A stretch of DNA of 59,494 bases from Saccostrea cucullata (GCF_032062105.1 NW_026934651.1:1-59494), one strand, 5' to 3'. Shown: positions 32,175-37,064, numbered from the stretch's first letter. Notes: generated by a model from the sequence alone, not told the origin. Program-made: numbers and translations.

Positions 32175-32542
32175 TCCAATAGAGGAAATGGATACTGAGT
32201 TTGTAGATTATTGAGACTACAATTAATAAATGAATATCGTCTATTACACGTGTTGACGTTGTAATAGAGATTATAAAAGTTTAGCTGCAATGGCCCGTCT
32301 AGTTATCAGAGTGTGATAAGTTAGAGGGTTTTGTAGTAATCTAATGCGCGGATAGAACTTCATAGGTTATATAAATTTATTAGTATCACGTGATCTATGT
32401 CACGCCTTAGAAAATGATATCAAATGAGAACAATTTTAGAAACATCAACAATAAAGAAAATATCCATATGTATTGTTAAATACATTGTATGCTCATTGAG
32501 TGTACATTAAACATTCTCACTAATTTAATCAACAACTTCCTG

Positions 32543-33085
32543 TTTTCCATAAACGACATCAATCAACCAGACTTGATAATGAGTTATTGGGACCCGACAC
32601 TCTAAACCACATTGAATGAAATAGGATGATATTGTTATGATTAAAATAATAGTTATAATGGTAGTAGTAGAGTGTTTCGGCGACAGATATGCCTCATCAG
32701 GGGCCCCAATAACGATATTCCATGTTTATTGTAAGCTTGATTTTATCAATAGATCTCCGATGTTTTTATTCTTGCTATACGCAATGATGGGTTCCGATTT
32801 GAATAGATCTTTGCATATTGGGTCTGCTTCCAAAATATTCCAGTACTTTAAAATCCGCTTTTTTAGTCCTTTGATGCGAGGGTTAAATTTTGTAACCATG
32901 ACCTGTGGATGGCTAGGCTTTGTTTTTTCTCTACTTCTTAAAAAGAGTTGTCTTTCCTTCTGTGTTGTTTCTTCAACTATTGGGTTGATTTCTTCCTCAG
33001 AATAGCCTCTCTTTGAAAGATGTCCCTTGAAATCCTGTAGAATTGTTTTAAGAACTGAAGGGTCGTTAGTATTTCTGGAGTGTCT
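32543..33085 (-). mobile_element. PLE family A, copy 2 (3' fragment with an intact hammerhead)
   Basis: RT C-terminus plus 3' region. It is an inverted near-identical match to about 36522-37064. Confidence 0.9.
32583..32713 (-). ncRNA. Type I hammerhead ribozyme (family A)
   Basis: Reverse complement of the 36894-37024 structure, with the CUGAUGA/GAAA/GUC core and all three stems intact. Confidence 0.88.
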
Positions 33086-33767
33086 GAGTCAAGTGATTTG
33101 AGGTACGTGGCTGATGAGAGTCACTTTCTTTGAAACTGATATGAAGGACAACGTCCCAATGGCTCTATTCCCGAGAATCGCCGACTTTGTCTGCGATCCG
33201 TACTTCCTGTCATTTGATCTCACTGATTCTCTTGTTTCGGTGTTGTCATACTATTAATTCAGGATTTATACTATGTATAAATTAAAACTGGTCCGCAAGA
33301 GGAAAAATGCACAATTGGCATTTTAAAATAAGACAAACTGATCTATGGATGATTAAAACCTTGCACCAGGTTCACCCACGCATCAAGAGGACGGAAATTC
33401 CGTCGTATAAGAATGCAGCAAACCGAAAACGTATCTGGAATTTTGACTGGGTGACTGCATTCATCATTTTATATTTACAAAAATGTGTTTTCGGATTATA
33501 TTTTGATTGGGAGTAATGAAACAGGTAGCTATGCTTGTATTTTATCACTCGCTAATTAAGTTCCAATCACTCTGATTTGTCAGGTACGAATGGAGATTTG
33601 AATCACGTGATCTTCCACGTGCGCTGGTTCTAAAACTACAAGTACATTCACAACAGAATGATACGTCGTTCCGATCGGAACGCTATATGTTAAAGCGCAA
33701 ATTGCGCAAGGCTTAAGAATTACAAAGCCAATTAACAAAGAGATCATAGAACAATATAGTTCTCTTA

Positions 33768-34346
33768 AGCCCTATTTACACGATCTGATTTGTAAGATGT
33801 GACTTGCCACATCTTACAAATCATACCGTGTAAATAGGAAAATCATAAGACAGATATGAAGTCAGATGGAGTCAGATGGAATAGAAACATGCTCTATTCC
33901 GTCTGGCAAGTCAGATGGTTTTAACCAATCATTGAAAAGGTCAAAGAGGTTGATCTATATAAAGAAGAACTAACATGTGAATTTTTCCCGCACTTCTTCT
34001 CCAAAGATAATTCAATATCAATTAATCTTATTTATTGCAATTAAAATGTGAGGGAAATCCTGAGAGGACATTTTCTATTGGCTGGGCAGAAGAGAGAACT
34101 GAAATTAACTACAGAACAAACTGTAAGATTAGTAGAACTATATCAAGAAGAAGTAGATTTATTAAAACACAAATGACTATAAAACTATCATCATCTTCCA
34201 TTGTGAAATGTAAACAAAAAAATTTAGAGGGAAATATTAATGAACTTCATGTCTGACAAATCATACTGTGTAAATGAAACACTGGAGTCAGATGTGAAAT
34301 CACATCTGAAATCACATCTTACAAGTCAGACCGTGTAAATAGGGCT
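33768..34346. mobile_element. Harbinger/Tourist-type MITE inside family B
   Basis: TIR of about 35 bp (AGCCCTATTTACACG.TCTGA.TTGTAAGATGTGA), TTA TSD, and an extra inverted TIR copy at 33809-33838. Confidence 0.88.
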
Positions 34347-35545
34347 TTAGCTCGTGAGCTTGTATCTCATTTTCACATCGGACGTATTGTCTGATAATGA
34401 AAAATTATTTTTGACGAGAGGGCCCTCTCCAAAGTCACAACATGCAAGAAATTTACTCATTCGTTTATCAATGAGTTTGCTGAAAAGTTGAAAATAGATA
34501 CTTGTCTCTTGATCCTAATGAGAACATTGCGATGCCTCTTTCTCGCTTTAAAAGCGGTTGAATTTGAACCAGATTTATAATGACTCCATATATTACGTAC
34601 CTTGACAATACAAAACGTGAATTGTCATCACTGGAAGTCGGAGAGAAATTTGAAATCTCAGATTTTGCTTTATAAAAAGCATTGATGGAACTTAATAAAA
34701 ACAAAAATTTCATCTAATAAAAGCTGACTAAATGATGTCACTGAATGAAACACAGTAAAGAGTCGTATGAACGGCACTTAAATTCAAAATATAGCTGCTG
34801 AATTTAGTATCCCAAATCAAAACATCTTGATGAACACATGGCTGAAATGAATGCAAAGGGTGTCCTTGACTATATTACTTATAGCTTTCTGCAATTAGCA
34901 GATAACACGAGGACGGAGAGATTAAATCTACTCCATAAAATATACAAAAGTAATTGATGCTGCAAATTACCTTTATTTCTCAAGAAGGCCTATTACATTT
35001 CAAAAAGGCACTTACTTAAATGTAGTCATTTTTATTGATTATAATTTTAATCATTTATTGTGCTTGCATAACTTGAGCACAAATTTTATGGATATCTCAG
35101 ACTTCACATTGAAGAATGAACTTCTGCGACCACACAACGAGAATTTGCTGGTCAGCTGTGCTGTAACATCACTTTACACAAACGTGCAATTGGAGAAGCC
35201 TATGGCTGCTGTTGATACGGCTTTTAGGGAAATTCTCAGTCTAAGCCGAGCCCACAACATACCAAATTTATTTACTCAGATTTAATATATTTGAATTTGC
35301 AAATATATACAAACAAATAATTGAATATGCGATGGGTTCTAAGTCAGGAACCCCATTCTGTATGCGATATTCGCTAATAAAATCGATGTATAAAATTATA
35401 AAAATGCCAGCATATTCAAAGAAATATAAGGATTGCAATACAATCCTCCAAGAAAAACCTATTGTGTCATTAAACACATTAATAATCTGAGTAACATGCT
35501 CCTCTCCTAACTAATTTAATAATTTGTATAACAGATGTGCAAATA

Positions 35546-35644
35546 GGCTCCTGATGATGGCGGATTTGCAGCTAATTAATATACTATCAAAATCTTTAAC
35601 CTCGTATATATCACACCGCCGAAACACTAGATTAGTGTCGAGTC
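35546..35644 (+). ncRNA. Type I hammerhead ribozyme (family B) with a long loop II
   Basis: GGCTC-CTGATGA-T-GGCGG-(52 nt)-CCGCC-GAAA-CACTA-gat-TAGTG-TC^GAGTC, with predicted cleavage after 35639. Confidence 0.85.
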
Positions 35645-35686
35645 AAGTGATTTGAGGTACGTGGCTGATGAGAGTCACTTTCTTTG

Positions 35687-37064
35687 AAACTTCAAGACAA
35701 TGTCCGAAATGCCCTCATTAATGACCTATGCAGTATCAGACGATTACCACCTGGGCGGCCAATTATTGCTCAGTGCAATACACCAACGAGGAAAATTGGG
35801 GCATATTGTGACTACTTTCTTATCCCCATCGTACAAAAACAATTAACCTATATCAAGGACACTACTGATTTTATCAATAAGATCGAATGTTTAGAACTCC
35901 CGTCGGATGCGTTACTAATCACTTACGATGTAACCAGCATGTATACAAATATGGAATTTGAAGAACTACTAAATGCCGTCAGGAATGCTTACAACAACGC
36001 GGATAAAAGCAACTCAGACATCCCGTATCCTGATGTGGACGACTTAATTTTTCTTCTCAGATGCGTATTAGAAAACAATTTCTTTGAATTTAACGGAAAA
36101 TTCTACAAACAAATCATAGGCTGCAGCATGGGCGCAGTACCTTCCCCCGGAAATCTCAGACATGAGAATGTACGAAATTACGCAGTTTATTGAATCTAAA
36201 TTTCAACATGTCAACAAAATTCTGTTTCATGGCAGATTTAGGGATGATGGATTCATAATCTTTAACGGAACAAAGGAAGAAATTCTAGAATTTTTTGACA
36301 TCAGTAACAGCTGTCATAAACATCTTAAATTCACATTTGAAATAGCTCACTCATCCGTAAATTTCCTGGACACAACGGTTTACAAAGGCAATAGATGTAA
36401 TCATTGTCAGAAACTTGATATCAAATCTTACATAAAACCAACTAATAATTTTCAATATCTTCATAGAAACAGTGCACACAACGCCTCTGTATTTAAAGGT
36501 TTTATCAAAGGAGAATGTATAAGACACTCCAGAAATACTAACGACCCTTCAGTTCTTAAAACAATTCTACAGGATTTCAAGGGACATCTTTCAAAGAGAG
36601 GCTATTCTGAGGAAGAAATCAACCCAATAGTTGAAGAAACAACACAGAAGGAAAGACAACTCTTTTTAAGAAGTAGAGAAAACACAAAGCCTAGCCATCC
36701 ACAGGTCATGGTTACAAAATTTAACCCTCGCATCAAAGGACTAAAAAAGCGGATTTTAAAGTACTGGAATATTTTGGAAGCAGACCCAATATGCAAAGAT
36801 CTATTCAAATCGGAACCTATCATTGCGTATAGCAAGCATAAAAACATAGGAGATCTATTGATAAAATCAAGCGTACAATAAACATGGAATATTGTTATTG
36901 GGGCCCCTGATGAGGCATATCTGTCGCCGAAACACTCTACTACTACCATTATGACTATTATTTTAATCATAACAATATCATCCTATTTCATTCAATGTGG
37001 TTTAGAGTGTCGGGTCCCAATAACTCATTATCAAGTCTGGTTGATTGATGTCGTTTATGGAAAA
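35687..37064 (+). mobile_element. PLE family A, copy 3 (5'-truncated, one frameshift near 36145)
   Basis: ORFs 35684-36193 and 36162-36881 are near-identical to the C-terminal two thirds of the 643-aa RT. The stop is at the same position and is followed by the hammerhead. Confidence 0.92.
36894..37024 (+). ncRNA. Type I hammerhead ribozyme (family A) with extended stem/loop III
   Basis: GTTATTGGGGCCC-CTGATGA-GGC(atatctgtc)GCC-GAAA-CACTCTA-(63 nt)-TAGAGTG-TC^GGGTCCCAATAAC. Stem I is 13 bp, and cleavage is predicted after 37011. Confidence 0.9.

Follow-up and report, generated by a model that had tools for sequence, protein, structure and literature searches.

The 14,571-bp compound of Penelope-like element (PLE) copies at 22494-37064 probably, though by no means certainly, dates from a single event in which a chromosome break that already existed was primed at its two ends for reverse transcription. 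The window analysed (59,494 nucleotides of Saccostrea cucullata, NW_026934651.1) is one entire contig of a 1.17-Gb animal assembly. Three copies of a family termed A (copies 1, 2 and 3) and one unit of a second family, B, are likely to form a single compound, the right half of which is the inverted pair with B described in the first-pass annotation. The compound measures ~6.86 kb once nested insertions are subtracted.

A native A unit is ~3.5 kb long and consists of cut site, tail, leader, ORF1, spacer, reverse transcriptase (RT) and hammerhead. The left end of the compound is formed by fragment a (22494..22925, minus strand), which carries the ORF1 3' end and the first ~160 nt of the ORF1-RT spacer, is joined to host DNA within a Tc1-like element by an end that is not a standard tail, and shows 0 differences from copy 1 over 149 columns. 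The tail of copy 1 is attached to this fragment. The distal part of copy 1 (22926..23053, minus) comprises the remaining hammerhead stem III, the cut site (22980/1) and the tail to +55, counted in nucleotides past the ribozyme cut; the main part (30180..32540, minus, subfamily A1) comprises the spacer, an intact 643-aa RT ORF (30243-32174) and the first hammerhead half. Copy 1 is interrupted inside the hammerhead at 30180 and resumes at 23053, the interruption being a later-inserted LINE with APE and RT (23054..30179, minus) that is flanked by a 5-bp duplication and contains a nested terminal-inverted-repeat element of 3272 bp (24202-27473). Copy 2 (32541..33086, minus, subfamily A2) is an A copy truncated at the 5' end that keeps its hammerhead and a tail to +55. 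Unit B (33086..35691, plus) consists of one full 1.97-kb unit, starting from its hammerhead cut site, and 52 nt of the next, with the hammerhead core at 35551-35639; a 590-bp MITE (33757..34346, no strand assigned) is inserted in the window's B copy only. Copy 3 (35687..37064, plus), a 5'-truncated A copy of 1378 bp with one frameshift, overlaps B by 5 nt, carries its hammerhead at 36894-37024 (plus, cut after 37011) and forms the right end of the compound with a tail to +53. The right host flank (37065..38765, plus) is a C1q-domain gene within a tandem array; host sequence flanks the compound on both sides, and it does not lie at a chromosome end. In all four DNA runs (4/4), the LINE was found without its nested 3272-bp element and B was seen without the 590-bp MITE; among the contigs listed for these runs over 21.5-38.5 kb, none bore on the 22494 or the 37064 junction. 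The LINE, its nested element and the MITE are later arrivals.

By self-comparison, copy 2 (32543-33085, minus) and copy 3 (to 37064, plus) lie tail-outward and are 98.7% identical over 543 bp; copy 3 and copy 1 are 96.7% identical. The inverted tail-outward pair with B lying between its arms was thereby borne out, as was the reported lack of a target-site duplication (TSD): none was found around the pair or around the larger compound. The left junction of the pair had been attributed to CAGGAAG/TTCCTG homology. The native sequence following the tail, as read at three read-through loci, is not CAGGAAG, two chimeric junctions having been compared with each other, and the real overlap at the copy 2 junction is 1-3 nt. 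Sequence is indeed skipped there, but what was taken for a small ORF represents the 3' end of an ORF1, and ~1 kb of leader plus ORF1 is missing. The skipped segment was also considered as an intron; this was rejected, GT-AG ends being absent from both strands. A restart on the copy-1 cDNA end, in other words an ordinary PLE partial tandem, is the simpler reading of copy 2, and with it the true left end moves to 22494.

Element A is, as judged from its sequence, an endonuclease-less, non-telomeric PLE with an upstream ORF1. Its intact RT ORF (643 aa) ends just before the hammerhead, and its best relatives are mostly 643-653 aa long. A PLE-type RT, a type I hammerhead in a terminal repeat and the combination of partial tandem, inverted 5'-truncated copy and tail are all present; the GIY-YIG domain that is fused to the RT of endonuclease-bearing PLEs is absent. 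Pfam detected no GIY-YIG in the A RT or the A ORF1 pieces and no significant match of any kind in the window RT protein, and a PDB sequence search with the A RT returned 0 matches. The domain was found by Pfam at the C-terminus of 8 of the 10 longer relatives scanned, and the A RT gave full-length matches with GIY-YIG-bearing proteins (E below 1e-70). A GIY-YIG-like motif was located near the C-terminus in 49 of 105 long proteins and in 0 members of the 31-cluster clade that holds A; this clade had a support of 0.999 (FastTree, midpoint root, unnamed proteins). Tails and window were searched for a TTAGGG-type repeat, and for this repeat only, and contained none.

Unit B is a decayed, non-autonomous member of A's clade. 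Its RT remnant, broken and on the sense strand, matches one member of that clade (E 4e-31), and a leader motif just past the start site is common to B, A and a third family, C. The B hammerhead had to be imposed as a constraint, at -16.8 kcal/mol, the unconstrained fold being more stable at -25.6 kcal/mol. Tandem B multimers occur elsewhere in the genome (e.g., at C12429), and of the retrozyme features tested, tandem units each with a type I hammerhead were found, whereas a monomer of ~300 nt was not, B being 1.97 kb long with an RT remnant. Metazoan non-LTR retrozymes, as described in the available parts of PMC7229834 and bioRxiv 10.64898/2026.07.22.740005, resemble B in being non-coding and PLE-derived and in their type I hammerheads and tandem multimers; they differ in their length of ~300 nt and in that B keeps the RT remnant. 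At the head-to-head joint with copy 2 (33086), the six bases preceding B's cut site equal the last bases of copy 2, with one extra base between; this hexamer occurs twice in 2299 nt of A. The joint could be accounted for by run-off, a single untemplated nucleotide, a switch to a further B 3' end and annealing; a blunt join is equally possible.

The minimum-energy structure of the A end is a type I hammerhead (z -3.4). Because the cut falls after 37011, the end of copy 3 at 37064 corresponds to +53, in agreement with the first-pass annotation. An Rfam scan of 20-39 kb gave no hammerhead match and 5 chance matches. Copies 2 and 3 had been stated to end at the same nucleotide; aligned to the native sequence of the read-through loci, they end at different positions, +55 (32541) for copy 2 and +53 for copy 3. 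A genome-wide pattern search yielded 38 A tails. The tally of A ends in the stretches examined comprised 33 tails after removal of 7 haplotig duplicates, made up of 29 true ends, 3 read-throughs and 1 contig end; 23 of the 29 ends were located at +53 to +57 from the ribozyme cut, and widening the interval to +53 to +60 raises the number to 26. At the 3 read-through loci, A continues through the tail into native leader, so the tail end is an internal site and not the 3' end of an RNA. Ends of B fell at +49 to +53 past the cut in 22 of 26 cases (28 rows after collapsing; 1 read-through class and 1 contig end set aside), and families C and D had fixed tail ends likewise. The tail of the PLE PAc marks an internal start of reverse transcription in vitro, and both strands are extended, according to the available text of PMC11167929. 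The shared tail end is therefore a family-wide fixed internal start site and no evidence for a single event. It had been traced to RNAs with the same 3' end, which the read-through contradicts, and other genomic copies were to be checked for ends at the A-run of the pair; that run proved to be the end used throughout the family and not private to the pair. Genomic 5' ends located exactly at the ribozyme cut, seen in the B unit and, at 3 loci, in five starts of A tails or units, suggest that cleavage may take place in vivo. Three oligo-dT RNA runs, which were also considered for the circular RNA expected of a retrozyme, provided 2, 17 and 15 raw reads, few in all, and 41 contigs without pile-ups of starts or ends.

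The back-to-back layout is found again at numerous further sites of the genome; it is a habit of the family and not a one-off accident, and as such it probably shows the way in which these elements insert. The search was based on 104 RT matches in the genome, the best of 3768 candidates, and 24 contigs had multiple hits. The both-strand contigs of sister families, at least one haplotig pair among them, were tail-outward with a single strand switch in 18/18 cases and extended up to 18 kb; tail mapping in 12 both-strand contigs located fixed ends and restart chains in 11. With related partners looked for, an opposite arm was found within ~8 kb at only 8 of the 22 A loci examined and at none of the other 14. 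Arms of different families are joined at C19985 (A left, B right) and C10879 (C-type left, A right), and C21980 has a C-type bridge. Tails joined onto truncated same-strand copies are common in the family. At the level of the family, two-ended priming is quite probable.

The proposed alignment of copies 1-3 was run and gave 422 three-way columns. Copies 2 and 3 agree with each other against copy 1 at 19 of these, as had been noticed; the special closeness that this seemed to indicate did not hold, copy 2 being equally near to unlinked copies (1.1-1.5%) and to copy 3 (7 differences in 543 sites, 1.29%). Three of the 7 differences lie at family-polymorphic sites, both alleles of which occur elsewhere, so that copies 2 and 3 were apparently written from two related templates. 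They share one allele that is absent from 18 other stretches examined. For the other A-A pairs, 0, 0, 1 and 5 family-polymorphic sites distinguish the two arms; at the two loci with 0 differences (C10286 and C21980) one template source suffices. Private substitutions amount to 10/2171 (0.46%) in copy 1, 2/542 (0.37%) in copy 2, 5/1376 (0.36%) in copy 3 and 16/1980 in B, and no age gap is detectable among the copies and B at these small numbers.

The comparison with an empty haplotype was made with contig C11802, which has neither A nor B at this site. It is collinear on the left (window 15973-22498 = C11802 88468-81943, 96.7%) and on the right (window 37061-39942 = C11802 31802-28945, 95.3%), and holds ~50 kb extra with eight further C1q first-exon matches. 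The suggested measurement of a target deletion was thus obtained, but its size depends on the ancestral haplotype. The left break falls within the Tc1-like element, ~55 nt from its end; the right flank begins at a point upstream of the homologous Tc1 site. Part of a unit, at the least, is therefore absent. A pure unequal crossover was rejected as the origin of the 50-kb gap, the two flanks coming from different C1q units. The 50-kb loss would belong to the insertion event; its size is given by one other haplotype of an unstable array and by this assembly. At other loci, 9 bp were lost at C10286 (versus MITE copies), about 0-2 bp at C10209 (versus 80% paralogs) and about 10 bp in an AT-rich patch at C9148 (versus its allele); a 371-bp duplication was found at C19985 and a perfect 288-bp duplication in a repeat region at C5030. 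A short uniform TSD was present at 0 of 6 measured sites. These variable outcomes fit breaks, unlike a fixed nuclease stagger. A flank-duplication test gave nothing at 6 of 8 A/B pairs and only repeat matches at the remaining two; of 11 sister arrays, 9 were likewise blank, and one hit was a 90% tandem repeat; the true end lay outside the tested flank in two of the arrays, and a twelfth had no tail match.

In the preferred reading, cDNA synthesis would be primed by each DNA end through a match of 0-3 nt, as a rule at the internal site located 50-57 nt beyond the hammerhead cut, and an enzyme falling off would restart at the fixed site on another RNA of its own or a related family. The left chain would consist of fragment a, copy 1 and copy 2, and the right chain of copy 3 and then B down to its cleaved 5' end; the two cDNA chains would meet head to head at 33086. 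The similar rates of private substitution and the commonness of tails joined to truncated copies argue for a single event. The first-pass annotation had likewise proposed that both broken ends were primed and bridged through B RNA in one event: the two-ended priming, the B bridge and the deletion fit, whereas the shared end lends no support. Its term twin priming does not apply in the L1 sense, each arm here having its own tail and a different template. Twin priming in L1 uses one RNA and leaves a tail on one arm only; it is alike in the head-to-head inversion and unlike in that there are two tailed arms and two or more RNAs here. Endonuclease-independent L1 insertion is alike in the lack of a TSD and the loss of target at breaks. 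Counted against the preferred reading are the non-standard left end at 22494, the assignment of copy 1, with its two nested insertions, to another subfamily, the small share of A loci with an opposite arm (8 of 22) and the two loci at which one template source suffices.

The compound may also have arisen in two steps, which is considered rather unlikely. An older A1 insertion (fragment a and copy 1) would later have broken in its spacer, and this end and a distant host end would have primed copies 2 and 3, bridged by B, with deletion of the intervening DNA. That copies 2 and 3 belong to one subfamily and share an allele not found at the other loci examined, and that copy 1 is of a different subfamily and carries two nested insertions, would be in line with such a history; it is opposed by the lack of a detectable age difference, by tail-on-truncated-copy joints being the family norm, by the homing that a second hit in a rare 2.5-kb target would need, and by the absence of the claimed 7-nt homology. 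It is improbable that the compound joins two insertions which were made independently, ~50 kb from each other, and were brought together through ectopic recombination of A copies, or through a later deletion or a misassembly, the 50-kb loss then being unrelated to insertion. The tandem C1q array does vary between haplotypes, the left end is non-standard with a near-duplicated 8-mer at the junction, and the compound is spanned by no read; however, one A1 relative matches copy 1 at 98-99% identity across spacer and ORF, without a sign of a mosaic at that resolution, and there is a single strand switch, as in single-site arrays.

Mixed-family arms discriminate two-ended priming from fold-back models, in which inverted arms result from fold-back or antisense self-priming, a model put forward for the Penelopes of rotifers in the available part of PMC3846280. 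In favour of fold-back, 2 of 5 A-A pairs tested have arms without any difference at polymorphic sites and a third has one such difference, and a short palindrome is present at the C6399 junction. The arms in the window, however, are 2 kb apart with another family between them and have 3 polymorphic differences, which already contradicts fold-back for this locus, and arms at other loci come from different families; such an origin is hardly credible. Very little probability is likewise given to a break that was made and not pre-existing, the GIY-YIG endonuclease of another PLE cutting both strands in trans. Endonuclease-bearing relatives are present in the public library, and PAc cuts and extends both strands according to the portion of PMC11167929 available; against this, no short uniform TSD was found at six sites, and the other arm types, where identified, are A, B or endonuclease-less relatives.

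Endonuclease-bearing PLEs typically form units with a partial tandem (pLTR), an inverted 5'-truncated copy and often a tail at one end (available text of PMC8557442), and inverted pLTRs with 8-10 bp TSDs have been explained by self-priming on antisense RNA (PMC3846280, in the part available). They share with the present families the partial tandems, the head-to-head inversion, the hammerhead near the 3' end and the tail extension. Judged by the same portions of these sources, A differs in having neither GIY-YIG nor an 8-10 bp TSD, in tails of ~55 nt on both arms versus 30-40 bp and often one end only, and in arms from different families and chains of up to 18 kb. In PAc (Poseidon, green anole), reverse transcription likewise begins internally on the RNA, where the tail ends, on both strands and with no homology; PAc differs in that it has a nuclease of its own and two start sites. 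RNA ends at the ribozyme cut are not reported for it in the available text (PMC11167929), whereas several genomic 5' ends lie exactly at the cut here. Athena/Terminon and Coprina, in the accessible sections of PMC8557442 and PMC6431247, share an RT without endonuclease, an upstream ORF1 (as in family A), a 3' hammerhead and head-to-tail chains; A is unlike them in being interstitial and two-armed, with no TTAGGG-type repeat after the ribozyme. MjPLE01 is listed in the available part of PMC8557442 as an endonuclease-less member of an endonuclease-bearing clade.

Inverted PLE arms are already published; those described here lack an endonuclease, lie in interstitial positions and are of mixed families. 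The open-access main texts searched yielded no paper in which interstitial PLEs without an endonuclease prime from both ends of a break. In the available sections of PMC8557442, the formation of inverted PLE arms is called unresolved, the endonuclease is seen as the source of arms and tail, and PLEs lacking it are said to be confined, in general, to chromosome ends; the families described here have arms and tails without endonuclease and inside chromosomes. The intact 643-aa RT and the defined start site make an in vitro test possible. Tentatively, an endonuclease-less PLE clade (at least 31 clusters below 50% identity), widespread and apparently undescribed, may heal interstitial double-strand breaks from both ends. 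If so, ribozyme-cut RNAs with a fixed restart site would serve as interchangeable patches that delete or duplicate host DNA, and a telomerase-related enzyme would act in RNA-templated break repair. About eight copies of the C1q gene array would have been lost here, and if the 50-kb loss is part of the event, such elements would also remodel host gene arrays.

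A Tc1-like transposon with a frameshifted transposase occupies positions 21045-22498 of the window; its right inverted repeat is absent there and present on C11802, the contig of the other haplotype. Genes with C1q domains form a tandem array (4.6-16.8 kb and 37.1-38.8 kb of the window; 30-110 kb of C11802), the copy number of which is strongly unequal between the two haplotypes, with 12 first-exon matches on C11802 versus 3 in the window. An array of 148-bp tandem repeats was located at 12803-13611, the corresponding part of C11802 being free of it, and fragments of a Roc-COR domain gene lie at 51386-53847.

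An element of 3272 bp (window 24202-27473), bounded by terminal inverted repeats and with tandem repeats of 16/21 bp in subterminal position, is present in many copies in the DNA runs. Its only ORF of at least 100 aa lies at the left edge.

Elsewhere in the genome, on L082 (contig G000:C19985), a mixed pair of the Penelope-like family A and its decayed relative B is flanked by a direct duplication of 371 bp (1025-1395 and 4602-4971), longer than is usual for a retroelement. A unit of the sister family C spans 2884 bp (2450-5334 of stretch L185); in contrast to family A, no ATG-started ORF1 of at least 100 aa was found in this copy.

The B tail (window 33111-33137 and 35665-35691) holds a second hammerhead-like core with both conserved boxes and weak stems, and the start site of B coincides with the second box of this core. 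Three further stretches (L083, 8073-8186; L072, 288-397; L188, near 2743 and 8699) contain units that consist of the tail alone, which extend over roughly 55 nt between the ribozyme cut and the start site and are in some cases doubled. Near position 8060 of L079, a single additional base sits precisely at the ribozyme cut junction, as would be expected if a nucleotide had been added without a template during a jump between templates.
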